Shown here in pieces: positions 2,734 to 17,853 of a stretch of 64,000 bases of DNA. The position numbers were made by a program, and so were the translations under genes. Source of the DNA: Bacillota bacterium (GTDB taxonomy: Bacteria > Bacillota > Clostridia > Oscillospirales > SIG627); contig JAQXGK010000073.1 in NCBI GenBank assembly GCA_029006345.1, forward strand, positions 13,822 to 77,821, in the 5' to 3' direction. The first letter of the stretch is position 1. Each line of letters opens with the position of its first letter. The notes beneath the pieces were generated by a model, which was not told the origin of the DNA, did no database searches, and worked only from the letters and a program-made list of their open reading frames with translations.

Positions 2734-3424
2734 ATATATTCTCATCTAACCAAGCCTGAACCACCGGCTTATCGGTGCTTTCCATAAACGGGTGAAGACT
2801 ATCCGGCGCAACGGTAAGCGAACAGGAAAACTTTTCACAGAATCCGCGCACTGCCTGTTCGGATTGCAAATTATCCATTCCCGCGTACAGTATAGCGGTC
2901 GGAAATTCCCACCTTTCTACAGGATGATCAAGTGAATAACAATAGTATTTCCACGATAACAACTCGACGGGCGTTTCAATCTCACCCTCTGCCTTTAGTC
3001 TTTCGGGAGTAATGCCAAACCACTTAAACATCTGATTGACCAGATAATTCATATCAACGATAGGCGACTGGAACAAGCATTTGCGAAAATCGAGTCCGGA
3101 ATATGTATTAAGCGCAAAATATGCGCCTATACTGCATGCAAACAGCGACAGCTCACGCCATTTATCAAATGCAAAATCGGCAATCTTGTTCAAATCGCCC
3201 ATTGCGCTCCATATGTCGCATCGTTCCGGCCGGTCTTTTCTTTCTCCGTGAGCCGGCAGGTCAAAGGAAAGCGTCTGATAACCCCTTTTCTCTGCAGTTT
3301 GCGCAAAGTCCAGAGCATATTCCTTGTATCCCGATTTGCCGTGTATATAAACATATGCTTTATCAGACTCATGTCTACATATAAGCGCAGGTATTCCGCA
3401 AATCATTTCTCTTTGTATTTTCAA
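2732..3424 (-). CDS. Alpha/beta hydrolase (esterase/lipase-like)
   Basis: 230-aa ORF with a nucleophile-elbow-like FACSIGA, HG at YIHGKSG, and a C-terminal DSLHPF. The TTG start at 3424 has AAAGGGA 9 nt upstream and overlaps the GNAT stop by 4 nt; an alternative ATG lies at 3406. Confidence 0.65.
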   Translation of the reverse strand: MKIQREMICGIPALICRHESDKAYVYIHGKSGYKEYALDFAQTAEKRGYQTLSFDLPAHGERKDRPERCDIWSAMGDLNKIADFAFDKWRELSLFACSIGAYFALNTYSGLDFRKCLFQSPIVDMNYLVNQMFKWFGITPERLKAEGEIETPVELLSWKYYCYSLDHPVERWEFPTAILYAGMDNLQSEQAVRGFCEKFSCSLTVAPDSLHPFMESTDKPVVQAWLDENI

Positions 3425-3972
3425 ACATAATCATCCCTTTCCGAAAAGCATACATATGTCAGAACATCGTGATAGGTACCGTCCTTATAAACCTTATCCT
3501 TTGCTGTGCTCTCCGAATGAAAACCGCATTTTTTCAGAACCCGGGCGCTCCTTACATTTTCGCTGAACAGCTCAGCCTCAAGACGGTGAAGTCCCAGCCT
3601 GCAAAAGGCATATCTGACCGCTGCTCTTAAAGCCTCGGTTGCGTATCCTTTGCCCCATTCGCCTGAAATCAACTGATAAGCAACGCTTCCGCGTCTGTGG
3701 GTAAGAGAAGCATACAGCGAAACAGTGCCGATAAAGCGTCCGTCCCGCCTTACCGCCCAATAGGTATACTCCGGCTGGTCGCACATATCCGTGATGCTTT
3801 CGATATACTCTATTGCCTGCTGCAACGTGTCCGCACGGTACTGCATCATAAACCTGTTAACCTCGCTGTCCCGCATCAGGCAATTATAAATGACTTCCGC
3901 GTCGTTCGTATTCAGTTTGTCAAGAATAAGCCGCGTCGTTTCAATTCGCGGTGTGCCTGCAAAATCGCACAT
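3421..3972 (-). CDS. GNAT family N-acetyltransferase (RimJ/RimL-like)
   Basis: The ORF-track version (to 4269) overlaps the permease gene. The ATG at 3972 is preceded by GGAGGAAG with 7-nt spacing, giving a 183-aa protein. RLILDKL..., WAVRRDGRFIGTVSL and WGKGYATEALRAAVRYAF fit the GNAT acetyl-CoA binding core. Confidence 0.75.
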   Translation of the reverse strand: MCDFAGTPRIETTRLILDKLNTNDAEVIYNCLMRDSEVNRFMMQYRADTLQQAIEYIESITDMCDQPEYTYWAVRRDGRFIGTVSLYASLTHRRGSVAYQLISGEWGKGYATEALRAAVRYAFCRLGLHRLEAELFSENVRSARVLKKCGFHSESTAKDKVYKDGTYHDVLTYVCFSERDDYV

Positions 3973-4025: not shown

Positions 4026-5069
4026 TTAGCCAACGATACCGGAACGCTCGATACCCTGAACAAGATACTTCTGGCAGAAGCAGTACAGGATAATAAGCGG
4101 CGCGATAATCAACAGTACTGATGTGTTCTTGATAGCCGAATTGTAAAGGTCCTGTGCGACAAACGAGCTCGAAGAAAGGCTCTTGGGCACGCTGACAATG
4201 TTCGGCAGCAAGTAGGTTCCGTCTGTGGTAAAGAACATGTTTGTATAGAAAGAGTCTGTCCACTGCCACGAGAACGAGAACAGGAACACCGTGATCATCA
4301 TGGGTACTGAAAGCGGAATAATAATCTTGACGAAGGTGCGGAAGGTACCTGAACCATCGACATATGCCGCTTCCTCAAGCTCATCCGGAACACCCTTGAA
4401 GAACTGTCTGAGCATGAATATATACAAACCGTTCTTAAATGCAATTCCGCCAAAAGAGAGAATTCCAAGCGGGACGTAGGTGTTAATAAGGTTGATGCTT
4501 GACTGGCTTACTATGCCCATTTTATTCAGAAGTCCGATTATACCGAATACATCAAAGTAGCGGAACTTCATGAACATAGAAAGCATGAGAGTCTGATGAG
4601 GAACAACCATTGTAAATATTACCGCAAAGAACAATATCTTGTTGCCCTTGAATTTGAACTTTGCAAAGCCGTATGCTACCAATGTGCATATCGCCGTTTG
4701 AACGACCGCGCAAAGCAAAGACAGGGTAAAGGTATTTAAGAATGCCTTTAAGTAATTGTTCTCAACAATGATTGCCTTATAGGTTGTCAGTGTGGGATAC
4801 TTCGGAATCAGCTTGACCGTAACATCTACAAAGTCCTCAGGGCTCATGAACGAGCCTGCAATCTTCGAGATAAACGGGAAAAGGACGATGTACGAAATAC
4901 CGATAAGAAGGACAAGGCGGAATATAACAAGTACTACTTTCTTGAGAAAGAATCCCGAAAAATACTTGAGCTTCATTCTCTGGGCTTGTGTAAGCTTGCC
5001 GTCGAAATCGACCTTCATAGCTTTTCTTTCTTGCTTTCTGCCGACCTTGCCGGTTTTTGTAGAATTCAT
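4026..5069 (-). CDS. Carbohydrate-type ABC transporter permease (second pair, MalG-like)
   Basis: 347 aa with multiple TM segments and an EAA coupling loop (DELEEAAYVDGSGTFRTFVKIIIP). AAAGGAGG lies 8 nt upstream of the ATG at 5069. Confidence 0.85.
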   Translation of the reverse strand: MNSTKTGKVGRKQERKAMKVDFDGKLTQAQRMKLKYFSGFFLKKVVLVIFRLVLLIGISYIVLFPFISKIAGSFMSPEDFVDVTVKLIPKYPTLTTYKAIIVENNYLKAFLNTFTLSLLCAVVQTAICTLVAYGFAKFKFKGNKILFFAVIFTMVVPHQTLMLSMFMKFRYFDVFGIIGLLNKMGIVSQSSINLINTYVPLGILSFGGIAFKNGLYIFMLRQFFKGVPDELEEAAYVDGSGTFRTFVKIIIPLSVPMMITVFLFSFSWQWTDSFYTNMFFTTDGTYLLPNIVSVPKSLSSSSFVAQDLYNSAIKNTSVLLIIAPLIILYCFCQKYLVQGIERSGIVG

Positions 5070-5086: not shown

Positions 5087-6073
5087 TTAGTCTCTGCGCT
5101 GATAGAAGACGAAGGCGGAAATAATTCCGGCTACGGCTGCTATTATGAGAATTACAAGTAAGAAGTACATCCAGGACATCGCAGACGAAAGAACATTTCC
5201 TCCGCTTTGCGTGTAAACCTCGTTGATGTAAGTCATAACCTGATTAGAGCTTGATGTGAACGAGTCGATAATGGTATAAATCGAATTTACCAATATCATC
5301 GGGCTGATCATCGGGAATGTAATCTTCCAGAAGGTTTCCCAAGCCGTCGCACCCTCTACGGTACAGGACTCGTAAATAGCCGGTGATATGGACTGTAGGC
5401 CTGCGAGGAAGATAAGCATCTGAACACCGGACTTGTTTACAATGTTGTATATGTTATTGACTATATCGACGACATAATCAACAAGGCTCTGTCCGACCTT
5501 CATATTCCTGAACAGGAGCTGGATATCGACTGACGATATAATTTCGGAAGCTTTGCTCGAGGACTCGCCTCCCGTATCTATCGACTCTCCGCTGCCGTAG
5601 TAGCTTGCGAAGGAGTTGTTCATATCGATTTTCTCAACAATACCGGTAGAAAGAATAACCGGTATGAAGAATATTGCTCTGAACAATGTTCTGCCGGCCA
5701 TCTTCTGATTAAGAAGAATAGCCATAAAGAGCGAGAAGATGACGATTGCCGGGATGTTAAACAAAAGATTCTGTATTCCCGTTACAAGCGTTTCAACATA
5801 GCTCGGGTCGACAAACAGTGCGTTTGAATAGTTATCAAAGCCAACCCAGTCAAGGTCGTATCCGCCGCCCTTAAGTATTACTATCTCATGGAAGCTGTAG
5901 TTAATGGAATTGCACACTATCGGTACATAGATAGTCAGGAAAATAATTACGAAAGGCAGGACGAACAGCCAACCCATACGAGCTTTTCTCTTGTCGAGTG
6001 ACTTTGGCTTGGTCTTTTTCTTGGGAGCCACTGCTGCGACTTTCGGTGCCTTTACTTTTGCTTCACCGTTCAT
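5087..6073 (-). CDS. Carbohydrate-type ABC transporter permease (second pair, MalF-like)
   Basis: Polytopic membrane protein with an EAA-like loop (AIYESCTVEGATAWETFWKITFP). The ORF-track GTG at 6082 abuts the SD. The ATG at 6073 sits 9 nt after GAAAGGAAAGG and is preferred. The N-terminus is lysine-rich and cytoplasmic. Confidence 0.85.
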   Translation of the reverse strand: MNGEAKVKAPKVAAVAPKKKTKPKSLDKRKARMGWLFVLPFVIIFLTIYVPIVCNSINYSFHEIVILKGGGYDLDWVGFDNYSNALFVDPSYVETLVTGIQNLLFNIPAIVIFSLFMAILLNQKMAGRTLFRAIFFIPVILSTGIVEKIDMNNSFASYYGSGESIDTGGESSSKASEIISSVDIQLLFRNMKVGQSLVDYVVDIVNNIYNIVNKSGVQMLIFLAGLQSISPAIYESCTVEGATAWETFWKITFPMISPMILVNSIYTIIDSFTSSSNQVMTYINEVYTQSGGNVLSSAMSWMYFLLVILIIAAVAGIISAFVFYQRRD

Positions 6074-6097
6074 TAGATTCACCCTTTCCTTTCATAA

Positions 6098-9025
6098 TTA
6101 TGATGCGGATGAATCCGCAGGAGCGCCGTCATCAGCTGCGGCGTCAACGTCTGCGTTTTCATCCTCAGGCTCAGGAGCCTTGATATCTGCAAATTCCTCG
6201 GCTGTGCCGACAAGATAGCCCATAGGAGCGATCTTTGTGTCGTTTCCGACTGTAACTTCTTGATTGTTATAGTTAAGAAGGAAGCATATACCATTGTCAT
6301 AGGTGACCTTGACAACGCGGTAATCGACGAACTCGTGAGCGTCTATGAGAGCATTCTTGACCTGCTTGAGATCGCTGTTTATCTCTTTGTAAATCGAGAT
6401 AAGATCATCGTACCAAATGCTGTATGCGACTGAGAAGTAATCCGAGAACTCGGTGTTCTTAAGCTCACTTGTGTTGTCGTAAGAAAGAACGAAGTACGGA
6501 TCGGCGCCGTTCTCAATAGTTTTGAGAAGCGTGGTCTTATAGTCGCCTGCAAGGTTGAGCGCCTCACCAGCAAAGTTGATGTAGCCGTGAAGCACGATAC
6601 CTACGAAAGGTACATCCTCGCTTGCAGCAAGACGTGAGCTCGATTCAAGCGGTACATCAAGAATATGAGAAGCGTATTGATATACATACGAGTTGCCGCC
6701 GGTGGTAAGGATTTCATAGCCTGCATCGTTTACTTCGCCGAGCATATCGGTAACAAGCTTTCTGGAATCCTCACGGTTGATGGGCATGTCCTCGTTGTGG
6801 TCGGTATTCAGCGAATCGCCGATGGAACCGAGTGAAATACCGGTATTTTCGAACTCGGAATAATCCTTGTTCATCTTTTCAAAGAACGAGCTGAGAACAT
6901 TTGCCGAGATTATCATGGGTCCGCGGTTGTTAAAGGTTTGAGCTATCGGATCGTAAGTCTTTCTGAGAGCTGCCTTGCCTTCAACTGTCTGAGCGGCGTC
7001 ATCCTTATAGTTGAAACCGTCGAACCACCCGTCAGACTGAACGTATGTAAAGTCAAAGTCGGGGAAGAAACCGATATTGTTTTCCTTAGTGAAATCAACA
7101 AGATCCTGGAAACCTTTGTCTCCGCCGAGCTTGCTTTCGACATCTACTTGGGTCGGAGGAGTGTAAACCATACCGCCGTTGCACCATCCGAGGTAGCGCA
7201 AATTGATGTTGGTAATTCCCTCATCCATAAGCTCGGAAAGCATTGTCTTGGCCTGTTCAAAGGTAGTAAGGGTTGTCTTGACAGTGACCGGCATACCGAT
7301 TATACGCTGGGTAGTTTCGATATCGCCGAAGGTCTCGAGATACAGCGGGATGTCCTCGCTGTCGTCGACAGTCTTGTTGATGATACCCTCTTTCTCAAGG
7401 TAATTTCTGTAGGCCTTTGCCATACCGACATAGTCAGCGTCTTCATCCTTGAGCATTACTATCTTAAGAGTGTAGTTGCCGGTATATTTTCTCTGCGCCT
7501 CAACCTCATAGGTTGCGCTGGCACCCGAAACAGTAATACCGTCGAGCGGATAACTGTCGCGCTGGCGCGGGAACACCGTCATAAATACAGACTGATATTT
7601 GTGAAGTGTACCGCCGTGCTCGCTTGTCAGCTGCGAAAGCGACGCACCCTCTTCTATTATTGCTACATAGCCCTCAGTAGATTTGGTAACTTCCTTTTCG
7701 GTCGTCCAATCATACTGCTGATTACCCTGACTGTCGAGAATCGGATTTCCTGCTTCATCAACAATTACGGTTGAAACATTCTTGGAATGTGTAACCGCGG
7801 TATCACGGATTACGCCGTATACGGGAATACGCCATGTTTCCATGTTTCCGCCGGTCACTTCGTGGAATCCGAAGTCGTTGCCGTACATCTTACCGGTGAT
7901 TGTTACCGAATTCTGTCCGACATCCTCAAAACGCACCAATGTGCCGGAGCCGTCGGGGATAAATGTATATCCGGTTTCGTCGTAGTTTCCTGCACCGAAG
8001 TAAGGAAGAATCGAAACGCTGGTAAGCTTGTAGATGGATGAGTCAAACTGAATACCGTTTGCAGGAAGTCTGACCTTTATGCCGTCCTCCTCGATGTAGT
8101 ATTCGAGAGCCATCTTAAACAAGGGAGGTGAAGTGTCCTCAAGAACATATCCCGTTTCCTCGTGGTCGGCAATCATGTCTTCCATCGTGTAATCGGTAAA
8201 TTTCTTGACGTAGCCTTCAAGAGTATCAAGTTCCTTGTCGGATATATCCGATACAAGTACGTAAACCGGCATTTCCTCTGCTATCGGATACTGCTTGAGT
8301 ATTTCATCCTTTTCCTTCTTGGTGAGTGTTTCATTGTTGATATCGATAAGCGTATAGAATGCCGTTATTTTGTTTCTTTCAAAATCGCTTGAAATTTTTG
8401 AGAGAATGTGTTCCTCAAATCTCATCTGAGAGATACATCTCGGAACCAGCTTTCTCTTGGCGGTCTTACCTATAGCGTATTCTACGCGGATACCGCCTTT
8501 GATAGCCTTGAGCTGGATCTGCGAGCTCTGAGCAGCGTGTGTAAAGCTGTTGAACTCATACTCCTTGTCGTTATCCTTGTACTTGAGGATAATCTGAGAA
8601 AGGAGGTCCGCCTTGACGCTTGCGGAAGATGCCGTGCTTCCGATGTCGTAGGGGTTTGTGAAAAGGATCTGTCCCGTAGTCGTATTCTTTACCGCGACTT
8701 CGCCTGTAAACTCATGGTAGTACAGTTCATATCCGTAGTTTGAATACTTGAGCACCATTGTCTCAAGCTTGGCTTCGGGAGTGGCATAAGCCTCAGCGGT
8801 GTAGTCGATGGCAGCTTCGCCTTCTTCGCCCTCTTCGCCGCTTTCAGCGCCTTCCGTTGTGGTGACTGTGCTGTCACCGGTGGCCGCAGACGTTGTATCG
8901 CCTGCCGCCGTTGTTGAATCTGCTGCCGTTACCTCATCTGCGTAAGAAGTCAGAACAGAAGAGCATGTAATACTGAATAGCATTACAAAAGCAAGCAAGA
9001 GTGACATGAATTTAATTTTTCTCAT
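6098..9025 (-). CDS. Secreted 975-aa protein of unknown function (DUF5696-like from memory; possible glycosidase-like barrel)
   Basis: AGGAG lies 7 nt upstream of the ATG at 9025. It has an N-terminal signal peptide (MRKIKFMSLLLAFVMLFSITCSSVLTSYA), a Thr/Ser/Gly/Glu-rich linker and an acidic C-terminal tail. No catalytic motif was recognised with certainty. The segment NINLRYLGWCNGGM...GFFPDFDF is reminiscent of (beta/alpha)8 glycosidase-like proteins. Confidence 0.55.
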   Translation of the reverse strand: MRKIKFMSLLLAFVMLFSITCSSVLTSYADEVTAADSTTAAGDTTSAATGDSTVTTTEGAESGEEGEEGEAAIDYTAEAYATPEAKLETMVLKYSNYGYELYYHEFTGEVAVKNTTTGQILFTNPYDIGSTASSASVKADLLSQIILKYKDNDKEYEFNSFTHAAQSSQIQLKAIKGGIRVEYAIGKTAKRKLVPRCISQMRFEEHILSKISSDFERNKITAFYTLIDINNETLTKKEKDEILKQYPIAEEMPVYVLVSDISDKELDTLEGYVKKFTDYTMEDMIADHEETGYVLEDTSPPLFKMALEYYIEEDGIKVRLPANGIQFDSSIYKLTSVSILPYFGAGNYDETGYTFIPDGSGTLVRFEDVGQNSVTITGKMYGNDFGFHEVTGGNMETWRIPVYGVIRDTAVTHSKNVSTVIVDEAGNPILDSQGNQQYDWTTEKEVTKSTEGYVAIIEEGASLSQLTSEHGGTLHKYQSVFMTVFPRQRDSYPLDGITVSGASATYEVEAQRKYTGNYTLKIVMLKDEDADYVGMAKAYRNYLEKEGIINKTVDDSEDIPLYLETFGDIETTQRIIGMPVTVKTTLTTFEQAKTMLSELMDEGITNINLRYLGWCNGGMVYTPPTQVDVESKLGGDKGFQDLVDFTKENNIGFFPDFDFTYVQSDGWFDGFNYKDDAAQTVEGKAALRKTYDPIAQTFNNRGPMIISANVLSSFFEKMNKDYSEFENTGISLGSIGDSLNTDHNEDMPINREDSRKLVTDMLGEVNDAGYEILTTGGNSYVYQYASHILDVPLESSSRLAASEDVPFVGIVLHGYINFAGEALNLAGDYKTTLLKTIENGADPYFVLSYDNTSELKNTEFSDYFSVAYSIWYDDLISIYKEINSDLKQVKNALIDAHEFVDYRVVKVTYDNGICFLLNYNNQEVTVGNDTKIAPMGYLVGTAEEFADIKAPEPEDENADVDAAADDGAPADSSAS

Positions 9026-9047: not shown

Positions 9048-11186
9048 TTACGCTCGGTAGGACAGCTCTACGAAGATGTTGTAGACAAACGAGAACACCT
9101 TTGTAAGAAGTCCGGAGAACAAAACGCCTATGAACATAATGAACGCCATTCCGACTATTGTTCCGAGTGTCGTCAGTACATTCTTGCCGATGGTATAATC
9201 GTGGATAACCATCATTCCGAAGAACAGAAGCAAGCCCGTCCAAATATATGCAAACGATACAAGGAGCGAAATAATAGCTTGTTCGTCAAGTGAAAGCACA
9301 TTGGAAATAAGTGTTGCGGGTATTACGAGAATCGGTATAGGCAGAAGCGCATATCCGGTAGCCATAACGATATCCTTAAAGCTGCCTTCGCCGTCAAACA
9401 GAGTCGTAAGACACCAGTTCGCCACGCAGAACAGAAGGAAAGGAGTCAGTACCGAAAGCACTTGACCGAATATGGTGGATTTCGACGGGTCTGCGTTAAA
9501 TATGTACGCAGTTCCGAACGTCTGATAAATGAATGCTAAAATCGTCAGAAAAACGCAGAACAGCGAACCCTTCAGGTTGCCTCGTTTCTCGTGCTTCATA
9601 TCCCAGAAGCCGTCAAACGGATGGTAAATAATGTGGAAACCGTAAATCAACGCTTCCTTGAAGGTTCTCTTGTCCTTTGTAACCTGACCGGCCTTGTTGA
9701 CTTTGCGCGTATACTTGTTGAACTTAGAAACAAGAACAAAGAATACGATGAGTACTATCGGAATTACTACGATATACTTTTCGATCCACTGCTTTCTTAT
9801 TGCCTTGAAAGCTTCGGAGTAGCCCTCGGTATCGGTAGCATACGAGTAGTAAAGCTCAGCCTGTTCATAGTCGCCGTCGCGCTTGAGGCTGTCTGCTATA
9901 CCGATATATGACTGGTCAAAGTTCGCGTTTCTCTGGAGAATATCGGTCCAGAACCTTGCCGCATCGTCATAGTTGCGGTCTCTCGTATTCTGAAGAGCCT
10001 GGGCAATACAATCGCCGTATTCTGTTCTCTTGTAAACGGTAATGGAATCTGTCGTCTTATCAAGCACAAGTATATTCGTGCCCTTATAAGTAATTGCGTT
10101 GACATTCTGAAGATTACCGAGCTGCATACCCTTGTCGCCGAATATGAACAGCAGGTTGCCTTGCTCGTCATAGGTATAAATCTTCTGACGGTTAGCGTCG
10201 ATTATCGACCACATACCGTTCGGACCGAGAGCTACGTCAACTATCGAGGAAGCACCGGTTACCGCGTCCGGGTTAACGTTCATCGACTGAACATCTATTT
10301 CTCCCGACGGAGGATAGAAGCCGGTACGCTGCATAACGTCGTAACCGGAAGGATTAAGCTTTTTAACAGGCGCATAGTCGCCGGACTTATCCTTGCCTTC
10401 TATTGCCGACTGTTGCTTTTCGGGGTCTATCGAGTTTGTGGTAACATACACGAAGCCGGACTCGTCGATTGTAATATTGTTATACTCAGTGGGAACCAGC
10501 TTTTTGCTCTGAGCGCGCTGAGCGTCGGTCTGGAATGCTCTCCAGAAGATTTCCCAGGCAGTCGGGTTAGTCTTCTGAGCTCCGAGGAAGCCTATAAACG
10601 AACCGTCTCCGTTAAGCTGGATAACGCCGTAGTGAGTAGTAGAGGAAATTACATAAATTCTTCCGGCATTATCGACTGCCAATGCAATCGGTTTATAAAT
10701 GTGGTTTTCGGGGAATACATCGCCTGTCGGCTCTTCGATTCTCCTCTTGAAAGCGCAGGTCTTTTTATCGAATACAACTATTCGGTTGTTATCCGTATCT
10801 GCTACGAATATTTCATCATCCTTTACAAACACACCGCTGGGGGTGGCAAGCGAATCTGCGACGCCCTGGTCGTTTGTAAAGCTGTCGATAACATTTGTAA
10901 CTTTGTAGTTTGAGTCGCAAAGAATAATTCTGTTATTGCTGGAATCGGCAATATAGACATTCTCGTCCTCATCCACCTCAATATCCGACGGATCGTTGAG
11001 TGCTACAAGAAGCTTCATATCTGCGCTCGTAACCGTTCTGTCGGGAACATATGCGTGGGGAGAAGCTATTGCTTCGCCGTCGATAGTATATATATAGGTA
11101 GAATACGGAACGGCCGCAGAGGTCTGACATACAAGGAATATCGAAATAAACAGAGCTGCAAATGCAATTTTTAATAATCTTTTCAT
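9048..11186 (-). CDS. Fusion protein: signal peptide + NHL-repeat beta-propeller + TPR-like segment + TM + C-terminal Yip1-type 5-TM domain
   Basis: AAGGAGGG lies 8 nt upstream of the ATG at 11186. NHL-like blades are present (VYIADSSNNRIILCD, IFVADTDNNRIVVFD, AVDNAGRIYVIS, FVYVTT, ILVLDKTTDSITVY). A TPR-like helical region spans residues about 395-468 (NYDDAARFWTDILQRN..., GDYEQAELYYSYA), followed by a TM helix at 471-487. The hydrophobic C-terminal third (about 540-700) resembles Yip1-family membrane domains. Confidence 0.7.
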   Translation of the reverse strand: MKRLLKIAFAALFISIFLVCQTSAAVPYSTYIYTIDGEAIASPHAYVPDRTVTSADMKLLVALNDPSDIEVDEDENVYIADSSNNRIILCDSNYKVTNVIDSFTNDQGVADSLATPSGVFVKDDEIFVADTDNNRIVVFDKKTCAFKRRIEEPTGDVFPENHIYKPIALAVDNAGRIYVISSTTHYGVIQLNGDGSFIGFLGAQKTNPTAWEIFWRAFQTDAQRAQSKKLVPTEYNNITIDESGFVYVTTNSIDPEKQQSAIEGKDKSGDYAPVKKLNPSGYDVMQRTGFYPPSGEIDVQSMNVNPDAVTGASSIVDVALGPNGMWSIIDANRQKIYTYDEQGNLLFIFGDKGMQLGNLQNVNAITYKGTNILVLDKTTDSITVYKRTEYGDCIAQALQNTRDRNYDDAARFWTDILQRNANFDQSYIGIADSLKRDGDYEQAELYYSYATDTEGYSEAFKAIRKQWIEKYIVVIPIVLIVFFVLVSKFNKYTRKVNKAGQVTKDKRTFKEALIYGFHIIYHPFDGFWDMKHEKRGNLKGSLFCVFLTILAFIYQTFGTAYIFNADPSKSTIFGQVLSVLTPFLLFCVANWCLTTLFDGEGSFKDIVMATGYALLPIPILVIPATLISNVLSLDEQAIISLLVSFAYIWTGLLLFFGMMVIHDYTIGKNVLTTLGTIVGMAFIMFIGVLFSGLLTKVFSFVYNIFVELSYRA

Positions 11187-11200: not shown

Positions 11201-12073
11201 TTAATCCTTCATACCTGAAGTAGACATAGTTTCAATGACATTGCTCTGCGAAACCACGAATACCAAAATGGGCACCATCATCATTACGACCGTGGAAGCA
11301 GCCGCAGCGCCCGCACGGGAGATGCCTTCGGATACGATCTGTTGAATAGCGTAGTTAAATGTCTTGAGCTGCTCGCTGTGTATGTAAAGCGACGAACCCA
11401 TGTTCCACAAATCCTTGAAGCAGAACATGATAAGTGTAAGCCAAGCCGGTTTAACCATCGGCATGACTATCTTCCAGAGGATTCGCCACTCACCCGCACC
11501 GTCAAGACGCGCACTTTCAAGCACCGAATCGGGAACCGATGAATCCATAAACTGCTTCATCAGGTAAAGTCCGAGGGATGTTGCAAATGCCGGTACGATG
11601 AGGGCAAGATAGGTATCTACCCAGTGGAAGGCACTCATTGTCAGGAAGTTTGTGATAGTGGTAACGGTAGCGTTGAACATAAGAGAATACTCAACGACTT
11701 TGAAAAGAAATACTCGTCCGGGGAATTTCAACTTAGAAAGAGCATATGCCGCAAAGGACGAAAGCATAACGTTTCCGAATGTACCGACCACCGATACAAA
11801 TACAGTGTTGAAAATATATCTTGAGAAAGGAACCCAAGAGGAGCCCATCAGTCTGAAGAGGTCTCCGAAGTTTTTGAAAGTCGGGTTAACAACATAGAAT
11901 CTGGGGGGATATACCCACAGCTCATCGAGCGGTTTAAGCGACTGAACGACAACATAGACCATGGGAAGAAACATAAACGCTCCGAAGATAAGAAGCACTA
12001 TGTTGATACCGAGGTCTCCTCCGAAGGAACGGTTCAGTGAGTGGTTTGACTTTTTGATTCTGAGCTTTGACAT
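11201..12073 (-). CDS. Carbohydrate-type ABC transporter permease (first pair, MalG-like)
   Basis: 290 aa and polytopic, with an EAA loop (SVLESARLDGAGEWRILWKIVMP). The ATG at 12073 lies 3 nt after the upstream stop. Confidence 0.9.
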   Translation of the reverse strand: MSKLRIKKSNHSLNRSFGGDLGINIVLLIFGAFMFLPMVYVVVQSLKPLDELWVYPPRFYVVNPTFKNFGDLFRLMGSSWVPFSRYIFNTVFVSVVGTFGNVMLSSFAAYALSKLKFPGRVFLFKVVEYSLMFNATVTTITNFLTMSAFHWVDTYLALIVPAFATSLGLYLMKQFMDSSVPDSVLESARLDGAGEWRILWKIVMPMVKPAWLTLIMFCFKDLWNMGSSLYIHSEQLKTFNYAIQQIVSEGISRAGAAAASTVVMMMVPILVFVVSQSNVIETMSTSGMKD

Positions 12074-12076
12074 GCC

Positions 12077-13033
12077 TTACTGACCTACCTTCCTCAAAAG
12101 TTTGTTGACTAGCAAGTTAGCTCCGATCATCAGTGCAAACAGCAAAACCGCTATTGCCGAAGCATAACCCATTTCAAACCTGGTGTTACCGTAGTCTTCG
12201 AGGTGATGCATGATGGTGTGAGCGCAGTAGTCCGGGCTGGGGAAGCCTACCATACCGGTAATTACGGCACCGAAGCCGAAGGACTGTGTTATAGACAGAA
12301 TAGCACCGAGCATCATCTGCGGCTTGATTGCGGGAAGCGTAACAAACCACAGCTCCTGCCAACGGTTCTTGACACCGTCGACCGCCGCCGCCTCGTACAT
12401 GCTTCGGTCAACGACCTGGTAGCCGGCTATAAACTGAAGGAACGAGGTTCCGAGTGAAGTCCACAACGCGACTATAATAACGATAGGCATTATATACGAC
12501 GGGTCTGTCAGGAATGCAATAGGCGTCGTAATGACACCCATTTCCATGAGAAGACCGTTGATAATACCGTGCTGGTCGGCGGTAAACATATACTGCCAAA
12601 TCAGGTAAGCGTTACCCGCGATACTGGGAGCGTAGAAGATAAGCGTCATTACCGCTCTGACCTTGGGTGAAAGCTCATTGATGAACCATGCCAAAATCAT
12701 TGACATCATGAACGATACAGGTCCTGTAATTGCCGCAAAAACGAAGGTGTTCTTGATAGCAAGAAGGAATATATCGTCATCCAGCAGAAGCCTTATGTAG
12801 TTGTCAAGAAAGACAAACTTTGGAGCCTCAAGCAGGTTGAACAGCGTAAAGCTGAAAAACACCGAAAGGATAACCGGCAATACCGTGAATATAAAGAAGA
12901 TGATAAAGAACGGAGCAAGAAGCAGATAAGCTATCTTGTTGTCCTTCATTTCCTTCAGCGTCCAGCGGAACTTGCTCATATCCGAACGATTAACAGGTTT
13001 TTTACTCGCCTTTACGGCGGTCGTCTTAGACAT
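12077..13033 (-). CDS. Carbohydrate-type ABC transporter permease (first pair, MalF-like)
   Basis: The ORF-track TTG at 13054 was rejected. The ATG at 13033 has AAGGAGAG 7 nt upstream. EAA loop is SMYEAAAVDGVKNRWQELWFVTLP. Confidence 0.9.
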   Translation of the reverse strand: MSKTTAVKASKKPVNRSDMSKFRWTLKEMKDNKIAYLLLAPFFIIFFIFTVLPVILSVFFSFTLFNLLEAPKFVFLDNYIRLLLDDDIFLLAIKNTFVFAAITGPVSFMMSMILAWFINELSPKVRAVMTLIFYAPSIAGNAYLIWQYMFTADQHGIINGLLMEMGVITTPIAFLTDPSYIMPIVIIVALWTSLGTSFLQFIAGYQVVDRSMYEAAAVDGVKNRWQELWFVTLPAIKPQMMLGAILSITQSFGFGAVITGMVGFPSPDYCAHTIMHHLEDYGNTRFEMGYASAIAVLLFALMIGANLLVNKLLRKVGQ

Positions 13034-13077
13034 GTATTTTCTCTCCTTAATCAATAGTATCTGTCACAAGTCCGCTG

Positions 13078-16000
13078 TTAGTTCTTCGTATTATCCGGAG
13101 TAGCAGCTGCGGTTGTTGCCGAGGTGTCCTCGGAACTTGTCGTTTCCGAGGAAGCCTCAGTTTTATCTGAAGTGTCTGCCTTATCGGCAGTTGTTGCAGT
13201 TTCCTTATCCTTATCGTCTCTGTCGGCGTAATCTTCCAATATCGGAAGGTCAAACTCCTGACGCTTCCTCGAAAGCTCTGAATTGATGTCGTCTATGTAG
13301 CCGAGCATTGTCGAGACCGGATCCTCAAGTTCGTTGTAAACTGCAAGGAATGCGAAGCTGATGTATCTTGTTACGATATAACCGCCGGGCATTTCGGGGG
13401 TATATGTCAGATGCTGGAACTGAAGCTCGAGGTTGTCGCGGTCGCTTGCCGTCCAGGGCTGAGAATTAAGCGCTTCAAGATTTGCCGTAGCGTACTGACC
13501 GGACGCACCGAGCAATGCCTTCTTTTCCTTACCGAAGGTGCTCTGAGCATCTGTGTCGGTCCACCACTTCATAAATTCCCACGCCTCATCTTTATTCTCG
13601 CAGCCGTTCATCATCATAACGCCTGTTACGGTACCTGCCGAGTCGTGATTTATGTTTCCGTCCTCATCCTTGGTTCCGGGAAGAAGTGTGAATTCCCAAA
13701 GACCTCTGATTTCGGGAGCGAATACCTGCAGCTGGTTATACATGGTATAATCGGCAACTGCTATGGGCATTTCACCGCTTCTGAAACGGTTTGCAAAATC
13801 GTATGCATACGGGAAGTTATACATTGTAAACAACTCGCACATTTCCTTGAAGCAATCAAGAGCAACGTTGGAGTCGAGGTTTATTTCCATACCGTAGGTA
13901 TAATCGATACCGTCCTCAGAAACCTCTCCGATTCCAGGCTTATAAAGCCCTTCTCCCCTCTGATAGAGGAAGATAAGCTCGCCTGCCATGGAGTTCGGGA
14001 ATCCGAACTGGAGGTTGTTGCTCTGAAGCACGGGAAGAATGTCGTAAACATCGTCCCATGTCTCCGGAACCTCCATATCAAGCTCTGCAAATACGTCCTT
14101 GCGGTAGAACAGCATTGAGAAAGTCTCGGTCTCGGGAAGAGCATAAGCAACATTGTAGAGTGTCAGCGGTCCCATAGCCGAAGCGTCGAAGCGCTTTGTA
14201 ACCTCATCGAAGCCTTCAAGGTCGGAGATAGGAAGCACTGCTGAACGGATAGCGTAGTTGATGACGTCCGCCGAAGCGTTAGACAGCGACACATCGGGTC
14301 CGGTGCCGGAAAGTGTAGCGGGAAGCAGCGTACCTACCGCAACCAGCTTTAAGTCAACATTTATTCCTGTCTTGGGAGTAAATGTATCATCGATCATCGA
14401 ACGGATTATCTGCGACTGGTCTCGAGAGGTTGCAGTCCAAACCTCAATGGGATTTGTTGTCTCCACTTCTCCGGCTTCGTTAACCTTGGTGCCCAAAGAG
14501 CTGTAGTCGCTGAAGAAGCTCATTATAAATGACTCGAACTCGAAGGCCAATGACTCGCCGAAGTTTGCATCGGCTCTCGGGATCTCTGCTTGTGCAGATT
14601 GGATGGTCATGTAGTCTATCTCGAGTGGCTGGCTCTTGGTGTTCATGATCCATGTTCCAAGGCTCGCGACCTTATCCTTCATATCCGAGAAGTTGCCCGC
14701 TATCTTGTCCTCATCGCTGCCCATTGTTTCAAGCAGCCATGCGGTGTTATCGAGTATGACCGAATCCTCGCCCTTAAGACCGACCGTTTCTTCAAGTCTG
14801 TCGGAAACCTCATAAAGTCTCTTGGATTCTTCAAGCATACCTTCGAGAACCTCAGGAAGGTTCTTCTTAAATTCGTAATCGCGGTAAATGTCGGGATTGG
14901 GACCCGTCAGCATAAGAATCTTCAGATAATAATTATTGATGGTGGTCATGGAAAGCTCGACTTCGCGGAGAATGCTTGCCATTCCTCCGAGAACGGCTTC
15001 CATGGTAAGCGTGTATTCCTCGCCGGCTTCAAAGTAGAAACGGTAAACCGTGTCCTCGCCGTCGCCCAGCAAGCAGGACTGCCAAGAGGAATCATACTTA
15101 AAGGAAAGACTCTTGGCCTCCTCAAAAGGATACTCACCGTTTATTCTGAGCGCTCTCGACGAAAACAGACCGGAATTGACATCCTGCTTGAATCTCATTC
15201 CTATCGTATAGAGACCCGACTCATTAACCTTGAATTTCCAGGAAATGGTCTGACCTGCATCCGTCCACTTGGAACCGCCGATTGTATTAAGACAGATGAG
15301 CGATGCGTCCTGAGGATCGGAAATAGGGCTTGTTCTGTCGTAAATCGGATATATAAGGTCTGTCGATGTGGAATCGGGGAACTCAGCGTCAACCTTTACC
15401 GACTGATCTGCCGAAACATCTTTATATCCTGCCGCTTCATACTCGGCGTAAACTTCCTCGTATGTCTTTGTATCTTCAGCGGCATAAAACTTTATCGATT
15501 TTATCGCTACAGGCTCCTGAACAGCCTCAAAGGTCACTATATGCTCACCTGCAGTGAGGTAAAAGTCAAAGGGCTCTGCAAAGTATCCGGTGGAATCCTT
15601 CGCAAATGTCTCGCACCATTCGGGCGTTTCGATGTTGCTCGGGCGAACCTCGTTGCCGTTGGCGTCTAGCTCGAAGCCGCGCGGAGCCGCGTTGGATATC
15701 TCCTCGTACTGGTTGCGCCATACGCCGTTCATAAATACATAACGGGCTTCCTTAAAAGGATAAGTTCCGTCCAAAAGGATAGCTCTCTCAATAGTGCTTC
15801 CTCTGCCCTTGACGGGATAATACTCTATCTTGCAGTTGTAGAGTCCCTCATCGTCAATATTGAACTTCCACGATACTCTTCCGCTGTCGGAAATGGTTAA
15901 GCAGTCAATGCCTTCGATGTTTTCCGCCACCACCTCAGCAGTGGTTGCCTCGGGAAGGTAATCGACGCCGTTGATTTCGGCGATGCTGGTTCCTTTCTCA

Positions 16001-16203
16001 TAACCTCCGTACAAAGTAACATATGTATCGTAGGTCACGGAATTCATAAGCTCCTTGATCTGCTCAAGGTTGGTCTTTTCTTCGTTCAGCTTCTCGATAG
16101 CCGCGTCAATATTGGCATCAGCCGAAACGATTACGGCGCAAGCGGACATAACGAGCGTTAAAACAAGCGTAACCGCAAGAGCCTTTGTGAGAATTCTTTT
16201 CAT
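13078..16203 (-). CDS. Giant (1041-aa) extracellular solute-binding protein with two N-terminal CBM-like beta-sandwich modules
   Basis: GGGAGGA lies upstream of the ATG at 16203, and there is a signal/lipoprotein-like N-terminus (LVLTLVMSACAV). Two internally duplicated modules are described in the findings. The C-terminal half has the family-1 sugar SBP pattern (PIEVWTATSRDQSQII..., GFPNSMAGELIFLYQRG..., WEFMKWWTDTDAQ). The tail is Ser/Thr/Asp-rich. Confidence 0.8.
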   Translation of the reverse strand: MKRILTKALAVTLVLTLVMSACAVIVSADANIDAAIEKLNEEKTNLEQIKELMNSVTYDTYVTLYGGYEKGTSIAEINGVDYLPEATTAEVVAENIEGIDCLTISDSGRVSWKFNIDDEGLYNCKIEYYPVKGRGSTIERAILLDGTYPFKEARYVFMNGVWRNQYEEISNAAPRGFELDANGNEVRPSNIETPEWCETFAKDSTGYFAEPFDFYLTAGEHIVTFEAVQEPVAIKSIKFYAAEDTKTYEEVYAEYEAAGYKDVSADQSVKVDAEFPDSTSTDLIYPIYDRTSPISDPQDASLICLNTIGGSKWTDAGQTISWKFKVNESGLYTIGMRFKQDVNSGLFSSRALRINGEYPFEEAKSLSFKYDSSWQSCLLGDGEDTVYRFYFEAGEEYTLTMEAVLGGMASILREVELSMTTINNYYLKILMLTGPNPDIYRDYEFKKNLPEVLEGMLEESKRLYEVSDRLEETVGLKGEDSVILDNTAWLLETMGSDEDKIAGNFSDMKDKVASLGTWIMNTKSQPLEIDYMTIQSAQAEIPRADANFGESLAFEFESFIMSFFSDYSSLGTKVNEAGEVETTNPIEVWTATSRDQSQIIRSMIDDTFTPKTGINVDLKLVAVGTLLPATLSGTGPDVSLSNASADVINYAIRSAVLPISDLEGFDEVTKRFDASAMGPLTLYNVAYALPETETFSMLFYRKDVFAELDMEVPETWDDVYDILPVLQSNNLQFGFPNSMAGELIFLYQRGEGLYKPGIGEVSEDGIDYTYGMEINLDSNVALDCFKEMCELFTMYNFPYAYDFANRFRSGEMPIAVADYTMYNQLQVFAPEIRGLWEFTLLPGTKDEDGNINHDSAGTVTGVMMMNGCENKDEAWEFMKWWTDTDAQSTFGKEKKALLGASGQYATANLEALNSQPWTASDRDNLELQFQHLTYTPEMPGGYIVTRYISFAFLAVYNELEDPVSTMLGYIDDINSELSRKRQEFDLPILEDYADRDDKDKETATTADKADTSDKTEASSETTSSEDTSATTAAATPDNTKN

Positions 16204-16340: not shown

Positions 16341-16370
16341 ATTTTAGCACAGCCAAAAAGCCTTTGTCAA
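16341..16370 (-). promoter_or_regulatory. Putative sigma-A promoter of the transporter array
   Basis: On the - strand: TTGACA (16370-16365), an 18-nt spacer, then TGcTAAAAT (extended -10, hexamer at 16346-16341). It lies about 135 nt upstream of the SBP start codon. Sequence-only prediction. Confidence 0.4.
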
Positions 16371-16813: not shown

Positions 16814-17848
16814 TCATTTTATAACTCCGCCGAAAAGCAGTCTGTCGTCGGAGTAAAATACCGCAGACTGACCGCGGGCCGAAAGCCGCGAGGGTGATAA
16901 AAGCCGCACGCTTGCCGTGCCGTCAGACACCGTCACCCGGGCGTGTGCGGGCGGCTGACGGTACCTTAGCTTGACACAGCACTCCAGCTCGCCTTCAAAC
17001 TCAGCGATTCCGGAAAAATTCAGATTTCCGACAGTAACGGCGTCGGCAATACAGTCGTCATCATATCCGAGTACAATATTTCCGCTTGCGGCGTCCACTG
17101 ACAGCACATATGCACGCCGCCCCAGGGAGATATCAAGCCCCCTGCGCTGTCCCACGGTATATCTGAATATACCTTTGTGACGTCCCAGAACCCTTCCGTT
17201 TATATCGACGAAGTTTCCTTCCCGCAATATGGGATTATCATTATCGCCGATTCGCTTTTGTATAAAAGATACATAGTCGTTATCCGGCACAAAGCATATC
17301 TCGTTGCTCTCCCTTGTATCGACAGGCACAATGTCCGAGCAAAACTGCTTTACCTCCTTCTTGACCGTTCCGGCAAGCGGAGTAAGTATGCGCGAGAGCT
17401 GCTTTTGTGTTAACTGCCAGAGAAAATACGACTGGTCCTTGGAGGCATCCTTGCCGCGCGAAACATAATATCTTCCGCTCTGTCGGTCAAACGACACTCC
17501 GGCATAATGTCCGGTGGCGACCTTATCTATACCGAGCCGGTCCGCGAAAGATATGAGAGATGCGAATTTCATGGTCCTGTTGCATCTCGCACACGGATTC
17601 GGCGTTCTGCCCTCAGTATATTCCCTGACAAAATAATCTATGACATTTCGCTCAAAATCCGCTCTGCAATCATATATGTGAAGCGGCACACCCAGCCGTT
17701 TTGCAACAATTTCCGCCCTGTCCGGGGCCGATTGGTCAAAAAACCGCAGAAAACAAGCCGTTACATCGTATCCCTCATCCATCAATATACGACAGCAGGC
17801 GGCGCTGTCAACGCCGCCCGATAGTCCGACGAGAACCGTCTTTTTCAT
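16814..17848 (-). CDS. mnmA: tRNA 2-thiouridine(34) synthase MnmA
   Basis: PP-loop VLVGLSGGVDSA, plus ATGHYA and the catalytic Cys region (NPCARCN). The ATG at 17848 (5 nt after the nifU stop) is preferred over the ORF-track TTG at 17869. Confidence 0.9.
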   Translation of the reverse strand: MKKTVLVGLSGGVDSAACCRILMDEGYDVTACFLRFFDQSAPDRAEIVAKRLGVPLHIYDCRADFERNVIDYFVREYTEGRTPNPCARCNRTMKFASLISFADRLGIDKVATGHYAGVSFDRQSGRYYVSRGKDASKDQSYFLWQLTQKQLSRILTPLAGTVKKEVKQFCSDIVPVDTRESNEICFVPDNDYVSFIQKRIGDNDNPILREGNFVDINGRVLGRHKGIFRYTVGQRRGLDISLGRRAYVLSVDAASGNIVLGYDDDCIADAVTVGNLNFSGIAEFEGELECCVKLRYRQPPAHARVTVSDGTASVRLLSPSRLSARGQSAVFYSDDRLLFGGVIK

Positions 17849-17853
17849 AGCCT

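Follow-up and report, generated by a model that had tools for sequence, protein, structure and literature searches.

Eukaryotic Yip1 (YIPF) proteins have five predicted transmembrane (TM) helices behind a cytoplasmic N-terminal segment, and a 2019 review reported no function for the prokaryotic members of the family (PMC6682643). The closest precedent for the protein described here is YknW of B. subtilis, which is the accessory protein of the YknWXYZ exporter (Yamada et al. 2012, J Bacteriol 194:4386, as cited in PMC4887032). YknW reportedly modulates how the transporter complex is assembled while itself transporting nothing. Yip1 genes also occur in circular and leaderless bacteriocin ABC clusters (PMC10707071). 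We analysed a gene at positions 9048–11186 (minus strand) of a 64,000-nucleotide stretch of DNA from a Bacillota bacterium, the whole of which we call the window. Like YknW, the product (NHL/TPR/Yip1) is a bacterial five-helix Yip1-family membrane protein encoded within an ABC-transporter operon. YknW stands alone, has about 220 aa and serves a MacB-type exporter with a membrane-fusion protein, whereas the Yip1 domain here is fused or translationally coupled to an extracellular NHL propeller and a TPR stack and lies beside two CUT1 permease pairs, an SBP and a GH129-like protein. The cassette encodes no MacB/FtsX or HlyD protein, its partners being MalF/MalG-type permeases and an SBP. The original prediction, made from the letters of the window, held that a Yip1 domain inside an ABC importer operon goes unexplained by current transporter models; YknW now supplies a precedent with an ABC exporter, and what stands of that claim is that the link with a type I importer appears to be new. 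With the eukaryotic proteins the domain shares its Pfam family, its five predicted helices and a cytoplasmic segment ahead of the bundle, but the sequence relationship is distant, and bacteria have neither the vesicle trafficking nor the Rab GTPase partners to which the eukaryotic function relates.

The CUT1 oligosaccharide importers of Gram-positive polysaccharide-utilisation loci (gpPULs), such as those of Roseburia and Eubacterium, are of the MalEFGK2/MsmEFGK types and use a common MsmX/MsmK ATPase (PMC5320581). The cassette resembles them in combining SBP_bac_1 with MalF/MalG-type pairs and in having its ATPase outside the operon, as one unlinked MalK-type protein. CAZyme and LacI neighbours occur beside the cassettes of more distant relatives but are absent in the window and its closest relatives. 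It differs in carrying two complete permease pairs in one fixed operon, in its giant SBP of about 1000 aa, and in three extra conserved components (NHL-TPR, Yip1 and DUF5696) that have no counterpart in the described CUT1 systems. The propeller belongs to the same repeat family, and has the same six-bladed fold, as those of PknD of M. tuberculosis (1rwi), TRIM71, Brat and Thin. As in PknD, it lies outside the cell with a single helix linking it to the membrane; unlike PknD, the protein has no kinase or known output domain, contains two family-specific inserts and continues into a TPR stack and a Yip1 domain.

The gene is an uninterrupted open reading frame of 712 aa, with a ribosome-binding site (GGAGGG) 8 nt 5′ of its ATG. 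It is real, and its product tethers a surface propeller to a membrane domain of the Yip1 family, in the order signal peptide, six-bladed NHL propeller, short TPR stack, anchor helix, basic cytoplasmic linker and five-helix Yip1 domain. An AlphaFold2 model (pLDDT 82.9) comprises a propeller (residues 30–387), five TPR-like helices (389–470), a long helix (474–500) and a helical bundle (538–711), and hydropathy gives a signal peptide (1–24), TM1 (469–489), a cytoplasmic linker that contains 13 K/R, and a further five TM helices. Pfam, profile searches, the model and hydropathy thus bear out the series of signal peptide, NHL repeats, TPR, one TM helix, basic linker and Yip1 domain that the original prediction had proposed. 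All four motifs that it cited are found in the protein, and the two Pfam families that it had suggested searching for, PF04893 and PF01436, both match above cut-off.

The signal peptide (residues 1–24, ending CQTSA/AVPY; 11115–11186, minus strand), with a hydropathy peak at residues 4–22 and a model helix at 2–19, varies more across the family than any other segment. The extracellular six-bladed NHL β-propeller that follows (residues 25–388; 10023–11114, minus strand) was identified by Pfam, PDB profile and Foldseek. Pfam NHL (PF01436) matched with E=2e-13 and 50.1 bits against a cut-off of 20, and Pfam SBBP β-propeller repeats matched at 5e-08. The family profile matched solved NHL propellers at 1e-17 to 1e-34, with the PknD sensor domain as the closest bacterial NHL structure, and the best Foldseek matches were the NHL domains of TRIM71, Thin and the PknD-derived Pizza (E about 1e-15, target TM-score 0.70–0.79). 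Matches to NCBIfam ScyF and CIS12 fell far under their cut-offs and reflect NHL repeats only. The two conserved inserts specific to the family lie at residues 203–232 and 253–313 (PVKKLNxxGxDVMxRTGFxPPSGE).

Predicted to sit directly on the outer membrane face, the TPR-like helical stack (residues 389–466; 9789–10022, minus strand) is supported by profile, Pfam matches of homologues and model: the family profile aligns residues 401–457 to consensus TPR proteins (E down to 6e-18), several homologues have precomputed matches to the TPR families PF00515, PF07719 and PF13432, and the model helices span 389–402, 406–419, 424–436, 440–449 and 453–470. Next come the anchor helix TM1 (469–489, hydropathy 2.72) and a basic cytoplasmic linker to residue 516 (9639–9788, minus strand), assigned by hydropathy and conservation, with 13 K/R within residues 488–545. 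Apart from the signal peptide this tether is the least conserved part of the family, and it is where the split forms of other lineages end and restart. The Yip1 domain (residues 517–712; 9051–9638, minus strand) was assigned by Pfam, hydropathy and model. Pfam Yip1 (PF04893, clan CL0112) matched with E=1e-15 and 58.5 bits (cut-off 28.6), residues 518–685 covering positions 2–170 of the 173 in the profile, and the family is precomputed in 120 of the 120 best homologues. Five hydrophobic segments are predicted between residues 541 and 700, after the basic linker, and the model has helices across 538–711; in a Foldseek search with the whole model propeller matches dominated and nothing was returned for the Yip1 bundle. 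Two cytoplasmic segments of the domain are conserved, a lead-in (HPFDGFWDxKHExRG) and a loop (LFDGEGSFKD), and these, together with the two non-canonical propeller inserts, are the best-conserved parts of the family.

The gene is the fourth in a cassette that is made up of seven genes, or of eight where NHL and Yip1 are split. All are on the minus strand, with intergenic gaps of 23, 3, 14, 22, 15 and 17 nt, and NHL/TPR/Yip1, placed between the two permease pairs, is separated from the adjoining genes by 14 nt and 22 nt. A promoter-like site, TTGACA-18 nt-TG-n-TAAAAT (16341–16370, minus strand), stands about 135 nt upstream of the first start codon; a pattern match only, it agrees with the consensus at 11 of 12 positions, has an extended -10 and is the best such match of the region. 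The first gene encodes the giant SBP of 1041 aa (13078–16203), in which a non-SBP region of about 560 aa with only weak Golvesin_C and DUF5077 matches precedes the SBP_bac_1 core (6e-20 at residues 597–887). Permease A (12077–13054; BPD_transp_1, NCBIfam UgpA/GlcT) is of the UgpA/MalF type and permease B (11201–12073; BPD_transp_1, NCBIfam UgpE/GlcU/MalG) of the UgpE/MalG type, both CUT1. Downstream of NHL/TPR/Yip1 are the DUF5696 gene (6098–9025), the UgpA/MalF-type permease C (5087–6082) and the MalG/UgpE-type permease D (4026–5069; BPD_transp_1 6.5e-14, MalG 2.9e-20), the last conserved gene of the cassette. In permease C, BPD_transp_1 matches at residues 222–328 only and UgpA in two stretches, and an additional extracellular loop of about 65 aa lies between TM3 and TM4. 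The gene is therefore flanked by two ABC modules, as originally proposed: an SBP with two BPD_transp_1 proteins upstream, and DUF5696 with two BPD_transp_1 proteins downstream. The operon has no ATPase, and the genome's single MalK/MsmX-type ATPase (OB_MalK, 370 aa) is encoded on another contig.

The DUF5696 protein (975 aa; PF18952, 1.7e-161) has a signal or anchor helix, a disordered linker rich in Ser/Thr/Gly/Glu and a GH129/GH101-like fold. Its profile matched GH129 NagBb (5wzn) with E=1.4e-4, in an alignment that ends before the GH129 catalytic residues, and its model (pLDDT 85.6) matched 5opq at 3.5e-28, 5wzn at 3e-22 and GH101 at 1e-13 in Foldseek. In a broad alignment, only the positions D358, D384 and E838 are acidic in 90% or more of the sequences. 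Judging from the model, DUF5696 is the predicted enzyme-shaped component of the operon, with a GH129/GH101 fold. A literature search returned nothing under the name DUF5696.

NHL/TPR/Yip1 belongs to a large family. At E≤1e-30 it matched 1544 clusters (50% identity), of which the best 150 are nearly all full length, down to 32% identity; the best 120 homologues all have 700–730 aa and all combine Yip1 with NHL. Relatives are encoded by at least 593 species genomes, NHL/Yip1 was found in 84 of 400 sampled Clostridia genomes and 49 of 217 genera (about a fifth), and the cassette is also present in cultured Paenibacillus, Thermoanaerobacterium, Thermoclostridium and Mahella. The original prediction had suggested surveying how often the fusion co-occurs with its neighbours: the order SBP, permease A, permease B, NHL/TPR/Yip1, DUF5696, permease C, permease D was identical in 67 of 67 loci, that is, in all those long enough to judge the seven genes, and copies that are split or distant, with identities as low as 26%, retain it. 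DUF5696 is the next gene downstream of NHL/Yip1 in each locus that we examined and is present in 82 of the 84 positive genomes, the two exceptions having their NHL/Yip1 gene at a contig end. The smallest module that we observed consists of NHL/Yip1, DUF5696, permease C and permease D. We show by this comparison an obligate linkage of NHL/Yip1 with DUF5696 and permeases C and D. Across 76 orthologous loci, the median identity was 58% for the Yip1 domain, 55% for the propeller and 53% for the TPR stack, between that of the permeases (60–70%; A 65%, B 70%) and that of the SBP and DUF5696 (40–48%), a position that we count in favour of a scaffold over a specificity element. Some genomes of 2.2–2.4 Mb carry three or four paralogous cassettes.

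In many lineages the protein is encoded by two abutting genes, one for NHL-TPR-anchor (about 500 aa) and one for Yip1 (about 215 aa), which overlap or lie at most 20 nt apart in 12 of the 13 loci examined and 110 nt apart in the remaining one. A tree places at least six changes between the fused and split forms, five of them on well-supported branches. These repeated switches, found by comparing gene structures, show that the NHL-TPR and Yip1 halves work as one functional unit. The fusion, which the original prediction had called unusual, is not rare: it belongs to a large, ancient family and alternates with a two-gene form.

Clustering of flanking genes detected no CAZyme or regulator near the cassette in the window or in 80 close relatives. 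Its flanks in the window and in the closest relatives consist of the housekeeping genes mnmA, iscU, nifS and rnhA, so this clade gives no clue to the substrate. Other, more distant genomes show the cassette in a carbohydrate context, with genes for GH26 (three genomes), GH130, GH51, GH31, an apiosidase-like enzyme, CBM35, a LacI regulator and extra SBPs as neighbours. In Thermoclostridium stercorarium the cassette is followed by genes for an SBP, a GH26 mannanase and a GH130 phosphorylase, and the GH26/CBM35 gene corresponds in position to Man26A (PMC6106730). Thermoanaerobacterium saccharolyticum JW/SL-YS485 also has a GH26-linked cassette. Papers on C. stercorarium omics and enzymes make no mention of NHL or Yip1, and no account of the cassette turned up in a literature search that combined Yip1, NHL, permease, SBP and GH129 with the names of carrier organisms.

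On these grounds we put at about even the chance that NHL/TPR/Yip1 is an accessory subunit made of two parts, here fused into one protein, and belongs to a double CUT1-type ABC glycan-import cassette, and we infer that it serves as an accessory scaffold of a glycan-import machine. The five-helix Yip1 domain would dock in the membrane beside the permeases, with its conserved cytoplasmic segments touching the permease or ATPase side, and its action would resemble that of YknW in modulating assembly of the YknXYZ exporter. TM1 and the TPR stack would keep the six-bladed propeller just above the membrane, where it could act as a docking platform for DUF5696, the giant SBP or both, or for the glycan chain itself, so that captured glycan would be trimmed and then passed to the two translocons at one site. 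The whole would be powered by the common, unlinked MsmX/MalK-type ATPase. Counted against this proposal are the housekeeping flanks in this clade, the small number of positions in DUF5696 that stay acidic, the divergence of paralogous copies described below, and the fact that YknW serves a MacB-type exporter, not a type I importer. If the proposal is correct, models of Gram-positive sugar importers, which consist of an SBP, two permeases and a common ATPase, miss three conserved components, in a system present in about 20% of sampled Clostridia genomes. Prokaryotic Yip1 proteins would gain a testable function, and organization of ABC transporters would suggest itself as a common theme of bacterial Yip1, since YknW and the Yip1 genes of bacteriocin clusters point the same way. 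Because it pairs with different CAZymes, the cassette may be one of the main routes by which gut and biomass-degrading Firmicutes take up fibre oligosaccharides, which would be relevant to microbiome nutrition and to the engineering of thermophilic biofuel strains.

A more tentative extension, which we would not expect to hold but take seriously, is that NHL-TPR/Yip1 physically bridges the two ABC translocons and holds DUF5696 and the giant SBP over them, forming a previously unrecognized multi-subunit glycan-import machine of monoderms. Such an assembly would fill, in Gram-positive bacteria, the role of the Sus apparatus, and bacterial Yip1 proteins would be intramembrane organizers of ABC transporters, importers and exporters alike. 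The likeness to SusC/D/E/F of Bacteroidota concerns function only, namely surface glycan-binding and -processing proteins genetically locked to a transporter and accompanied by varying CAZymes; there is no homology, and Sus is a TonB-dependent outer-membrane system, whereas the cassette encodes an ABC importer of the cytoplasmic membrane.

The scaffold reading has to be weighed first against one in which the propeller/TPR ectodomain is a glycan receptor, lectin-like or standing in for an SBP, that feeds permeases C and D, with Yip1 as a membrane anchor only. β-Propellers bind ligands at bacterial surfaces, and the cobalamin-binding BtuG lipoproteins are among the Foldseek matches to the propeller. 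Permease pair C/D has no SBP gene of its own within the window, and the minimal module of NHL/Yip1, DUF5696 and these two permeases is consistent with a receptor role; in reduced modules and several full cassettes, however, ordinary SBP genes (430–514 aa) lie beside permeases C and D. Propeller paralogues within one genome share 30–46% identity, as expected if their ligands differ, but between orthologues the propeller is better conserved than the SBP or DUF5696, and conservation in it peaks in inserts common to the whole family and not in variable pockets. Paralogous propeller/Yip1 copies within a genome diverge about as much as DUF5696 (27–52% identity), a divergence that fits a substrate-specific role as well as it would fit cassette-specific protein contacts. 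Five helices and invariant cytoplasmic motifs also exceed the needs of an anchor, and TM1 already anchors the split form. We consider a receptor unlikely.

Less probable still is a transmembrane sensor or regulator, in which binding to the propeller would be relayed through Yip1 to the cytoplasmic loops, gating the shared ATPase or signalling to a regulator. The cytoplasmic location of the most conserved Yip1 segments, the need for a single MsmX-type ATPase to serve several importers and the proximity of the propeller to the PknD sensor domain are all consistent with it. Against it, no kinase, HTH, cyclase or other known output domain was found by Pfam or NCBIfam, the cassette has no conserved regulator gene beside it, and strict one-per-cassette stoichiometry with co-divergence from paralogue to paralogue alongside the transport genes looks like a structural subunit. 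The original prediction had offered a sensor or an assembly factor physically coupled to the ABC permeases; the comparative data favour the assembly factor, and the sensor half loses ground for want of an output domain or a conserved regulator.

That the propeller is an enzyme acting before import, a lyase, lactonase or depolymerase in the manner of Vgb, SGL or PAL, seems very improbable. Some databases call homologues 'gluconolactonase' or 'sugar lactone lactonase YvrE', but these are automatic annotations, and virginiamycin B lyase appears among the weaker Foldseek matches (E about 4e-9), whereas the best structural matches are non-enzymatic NHL domains. Histidines are among the catalytic or metal-binding residues of PAL- and SGL-type sites, and residues 25–388 contain no histidine that is invariant even among 55 homologues at 55–77% identity. 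Across the broad family, conservation above 95% is confined to structural residues of the NHL blades (D, G, P, Y and F). This is a weak test, drawing on sequence only. The same type of propeller is also kept beside very different CAZymes (GH26, GH51 and GH31). We rejected the enzyme reading for its lack of conserved catalytic-type residues, as read from the alignments, and the depolymerising unit first suggested for this protein finds no support, the conserved aspartates being structural ones of NHL blades.

Finally, although related genomes have a stop codon and restart at the junction, we rejected as having almost no chance of being right the idea that an assembly or sequencing artefact or chance read-through joined two genes, because the uninterrupted fused form is found in hundreds of independent genomes and assemblies, including the complete genomes of cultured Mahella australiensis and Thermoclostridium stercorarium, an identical protein is recorded in a cluster of five member sequences, and fused and split forms each form coherent clades. 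The original prediction would have taken a stop codon in relatives, with no conserved fusion, as a sign of such an artefact; stops do occur, yet the fusion is conserved, and given the alternation within the family the stop represents a natural split variant. The family is already labelled 'YIP1 family protein' at NCBI.

The NHL/TPR/Yip1 protein is encoded by the fourth of seven minus-strand genes that run from position 16203 to 4026 of the window, with gaps of 23, 3, 14, 22, 15 and 17 nt. The first gene (13078–16203) encodes a giant binding protein (SBP) of 1041 aa, with an SBP_bac_1 core at residues 597–887 behind a long N-terminal region. It is followed by a UgpA/MalF-type and then a UgpE/MalG-type permease (A and B), the NHL/TPR/Yip1 protein (9048–11186), a 975-aa DUF5696 protein (6098–9025; PF18952, 1.7e-161) and a second MalF-type plus MalG-type pair (permeases C and D). 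By pattern match, the best promoter-like site in the region (TTGACA-18 nt-TG-n-TAAAAT) lies ~135 nt 5′ of the first gene, and a hairpin at 2697–2734 is the sole strong terminator-like structure on the cassette strand. No ATPase gene lies within the seven-gene operon. The source genome (1.66 Mb) encodes a single MalK/MsmX-type ATPase (OB_MalK domain, 370 aa; contig C74, locus L109, 618–1730), presumably shared by the two permease pairs and any further CUT1 importer. It is unlinked to the cassette, as is usual for CUT1 importers of Firmicutes. The N-terminal ~560 residues of the binding protein gave just weak Golvesin_C and DUF5077 (β-sandwich) matches, and a Ser/Thr/Asp-rich disordered tail follows its core. 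Permease C (5087–6082, minus strand) carries a partly Ser/Gly-rich insert of ~65 aa between TM3 and TM4 (residues about 153–218), predicted to be extracellular and located where MalF has its P2 loop, which contacts the binding protein; this insert could be a docking site for accessory proteins. Genes for a GNAT acetyltransferase and an α/β hydrolase (2732–3972, minus strand), between permease D and the hairpin, are not kept beside the cassette in 80 related loci and so probably stand outside the system.

The NHL/TPR/Yip1 reading frame comprises 712 uninterrupted codons with a GGAGGG ribosome-binding site 8 nt 5′ of the ATG, and starts 14 nt past the permease B stop codon. Pfam profiles for both predicted families matched: Yip1 (PF04893) at residues 518–685 (E = 1e-15; 58.5 bits versus a cut-off of 28.6), covering the model almost entirely, and NHL (PF01436) at 2e-13, together with SBBP propeller repeats. 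A family profile made from 55 homologues matched solved NHL propellers, including the extracellular sensor domain of PknD, at 1e-17 to 1e-34, and residues 401–457 resembled consensus TPR proteins. The AlphaFold2 model (mean pLDDT 82.9) consists of a six-bladed propeller (residues 30–387), five TPR-like helices (389–470), a long helix (474–500) and a helical bundle (538–711); its top Foldseek matches were NHL domains (E about 1e-15, target TM-scores 0.7–0.79). Hydropathy placed a signal peptide at residues 1–24 and an anchor helix (TM1) at 469–489, followed by a linker that contains 13 Lys/Arg residues and then by five further hydrophobic helices. From these segments we predict that the propeller and TPR lie outside, the Yip1 lead-in inside and the C-terminus outside. 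The domain description in the original prediction was right wherever these approaches could check it, and by sequence the protein genuinely belongs to the Yip1, NHL and TPR families.

Many genomes divide the NHL/TPR/Yip1 sequence between two neighbouring genes, one for an NHL-TPR protein of ~500 aa that ends just past the anchor helix and one for a Yip1 protein of ~215 aa that starts at the cytoplasmic lead-in. The split point falls in the least conserved stretch of the protein, TM1 plus linker. In 12 of 13 split loci examined the two genes overlap, frequently by 4 nt, or lie no more than 20 nt apart (the gap in the 13th is 110 nt), an arrangement that indicates translational coupling. Both forms can coexist in one genome. 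On a maximum-likelihood tree of 46 units, the protein must have switched between fused and split states six times or more, and well-supported branches force five of these switches. Such repeated fusion and fission argues strongly, on comparative grounds, for the two halves acting as one physical unit, and it excludes an artefact in which two genes were wrongly joined. The original prediction had named a stop codon in relatives as the mark of such an artefact; a stop and restart is found, but as the natural split form.

The fusion is genuine, ancient and common. A word-indexed search returned more than 3,000 relatives, of which the best 120 were every one 700–730 aa long with Yip1 and NHL, under the database names ‘YIP1 family protein’, ‘hypothetical protein’ and, once, ‘sugar lactone lactonase YvrE’. 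An exhaustive search yielded 1,544 clusters at E ≤ 1e-30 (representatives at 50% identity); almost all of the best 150 were full length, with identity down to 32%. At least 593 species in a one-genome-per-species collection encode a relative, and the best 80 of these matches come without exception from Clostridia MAGs of gut or rumen origin (Oscillospiraceae, ‘Ruminococcus’, Ca. Flemingiibacterium and others). Even sampling detected the protein in 84 of 400 class genomes (49 of 217 genera) and 22 of 301 phylum genomes, and some 2.2–2.4 Mb genomes carry three or four copies. Cultured carriers, from exact-sequence identification, are Mahella australiensis, Thermoclostridium stercorarium, Thermoanaerobacterium saccharolyticum, T. 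aotearoense, Paenibacillus odorifer and the P. pabuli, P. xylanexedens, P. amylolyticus group. The predicted fusion therefore stands, but not its description as unusual: it is widespread, one state of a two-part subunit.

With the seven cassette proteins of the window as tblastn queries against 80 related loci, the 67 loci of sufficient length all showed the same gene order, and the shorter loci were all consistent with it. This order also persists in split copies and in highly divergent ones with identity as low as 26%. Domain HMMs placed an NHL/TPR(+Yip1) gene immediately 5′ of every long-form DUF5696 gene looked at. DUF5696 also occurs in 82 of the 84 class-sample genomes with NHL/Yip1; the other two have the gene right at the edge of a short contig. 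The 27 class-sample genomes with DUF5696 and without NHL/Yip1 nearly always carry a shorter paralogue of about 570 aa, which its different gene context marks as a separate subfamily; examples at L104 and L105 match profile positions about 190–612. The smallest module seen comprises NHL/Yip1, DUF5696 and permeases C and D, with ordinary SBP genes nearby. Since this module keeps just these genes, the closest ties of NHL/TPR/Yip1 by gene content are with DUF5696 and permeases C and D. Reduced four-gene modules in one 2.4-Mb genome (L091–L093) are without the giant SBP and permeases A and B. Three tandem paralogous binding-protein-like genes (~430 aa each) lie 3′ of one, and a similar 432-aa gene beside another has zero Pfam matches, so all of these genes are read as putative SBPs by sequence appearance. 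Another module has GH31 and an apiosidase-like gene on its flanks. A second T. stercorarium locus (L086) has no permease B, a truncated SBP, and an NHL/Yip1 that begins at residue 198; DUF5696, which contains a single in-frame TGA, and permease C are both broken in two. This degenerate-looking copy is probably a paralogue in decay. Flanking the cassette on its 5′ side in the window are the housekeeping genes mnmA, iscU, nifS and rnhA (16814–20022), which recur in 9–15 of the 80 loci, and close relatives also have PFOR and alaS. Since the same neighbours recur, the cassette holds a stable core-genome position in the source clade rather than lying in a variable island.

The DUF5696 profile weakly matched the GH129 α-N-acetylgalactosaminidase NagBb (E = 1.4e-4). 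Its AlphaFold2 model (pLDDT 85.6) matched GH129 enzymes in Foldseek (5opq, E = 3.5e-28; 5wzn, about 3e-22; target TM-scores 0.67–0.74) and GH101 enzymes (about 1e-13). Acidic residues are kept in 90% or more of the sequences of a broad alignment (24–57% identity) at just three positions, D358, D384 and E838; DUF5696 may thus be an unusual glycosidase or a binding module without catalytic activity. At the N-terminus of the protein is a signal or anchor helix, and both a Ser/Thr/Gly/Glu-rich linker (~45 aa) and the acidic tail are disordered. There is no CAZyme near the cassette in the window or its close relatives. Cassettes of cultured carriers adjoin GH26 (two genomes, one copy with CBM35), GH51, GH31 and an apiosidase-like enzyme, as well as a ricin-lectin protein, LacI and extra SBP_bac_1 proteins. 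The T. stercorarium cassette is followed by a 514-aa SBP, GH26+CBM35 and a GH130 β-1,4-mannooligosaccharide phosphorylase; the GH26/CBM35 gene corresponds by accession order to Man26A (AGC68130.1), listed among the hemicellulolytic enzymes of this organism (PMC6106730). On the 46-unit tree the GH26-adjacent copies of T. stercorarium, Thermoanaerobacterium and Paenibacillus form one clade. The modelled DUF5696 fold and the CAZyme and regulator neighbours make glycan import, with a substrate that differs between copies, a well-supported role.

The cassette is an ABC importer with new accessory subunits: although it is a CUT1 importer locus, described CUT1 systems lack three of its components. 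We found no publication on it in a set of 8.4 million texts that has most subscription journals outside it, and ‘DUF5696’ occurs in none of these texts. The notable object is this conserved, unstudied double-importer cassette rather than the fusion itself. The one studied precedent for bacterial Yip1 proteins is YknW, described in a passage citing Yamada et al. 2012 as modulating assembly of the YknXYZ ABC exporter (PMC4887032), and Yip1 genes recur in bacteriocin clusters with ABC exporter genes (PMC10707071). By analogy, our best guess is that NHL/TPR/Yip1 works like YknW. It lies outside that system, however, because its partner is a type I importer, whereas that of YknW is a MacB-type exporter with a membrane-fusion protein.

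We favour an accessory scaffold of the importer, which partly supports the original interpretation of a capturing, depolymerising, sensing or assembly unit, recast as a two-part subunit of a conserved cassette. Yip1 would dock in the membrane beside the permeases with its cytoplasmic motifs facing the permease or ATPase side, and the TPR stack and propeller would sit just above the membrane, docking DUF5696, the giant SBP or glycan; we infer these contacts. The best-conserved stretches, the lead-in HPFDGFWDxKHExRG (522–536) and the loop LFDGEGSFKD (596–605), are both predicted to be cytoplasmic; the non-canonical propeller inserts 203–232 and 253–313 are likewise highly conserved. Median identities to orthologues in the 80 loci were 60–70% for the permeases, 58% for Yip1, 55% for the propeller, 53% for TPR, 48% for the SBP core, 47% for TM1 plus linker, 41–42% for DUF5696 and 40% for the SBP N-terminal region, the fastest-evolving piece of the cassette. 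On these values NHL/TPR/Yip1 is under tighter constraint than the two likeliest determinants of substrate specificity. That the ectodomain is instead a glycan receptor is doubtful, and a sensor or gating protein, a reading that the PknD match would suit, we consider unlikely. An enzymatic propeller, suggested by a lactonase name, is highly improbable: the conserved blade aspartates are the structural NHL aspartates, and no histidine of the propeller is invariant. Paralogous cassettes within one genome each have their own NHL/TPR/Yip1 copy, with all parts diverging together.
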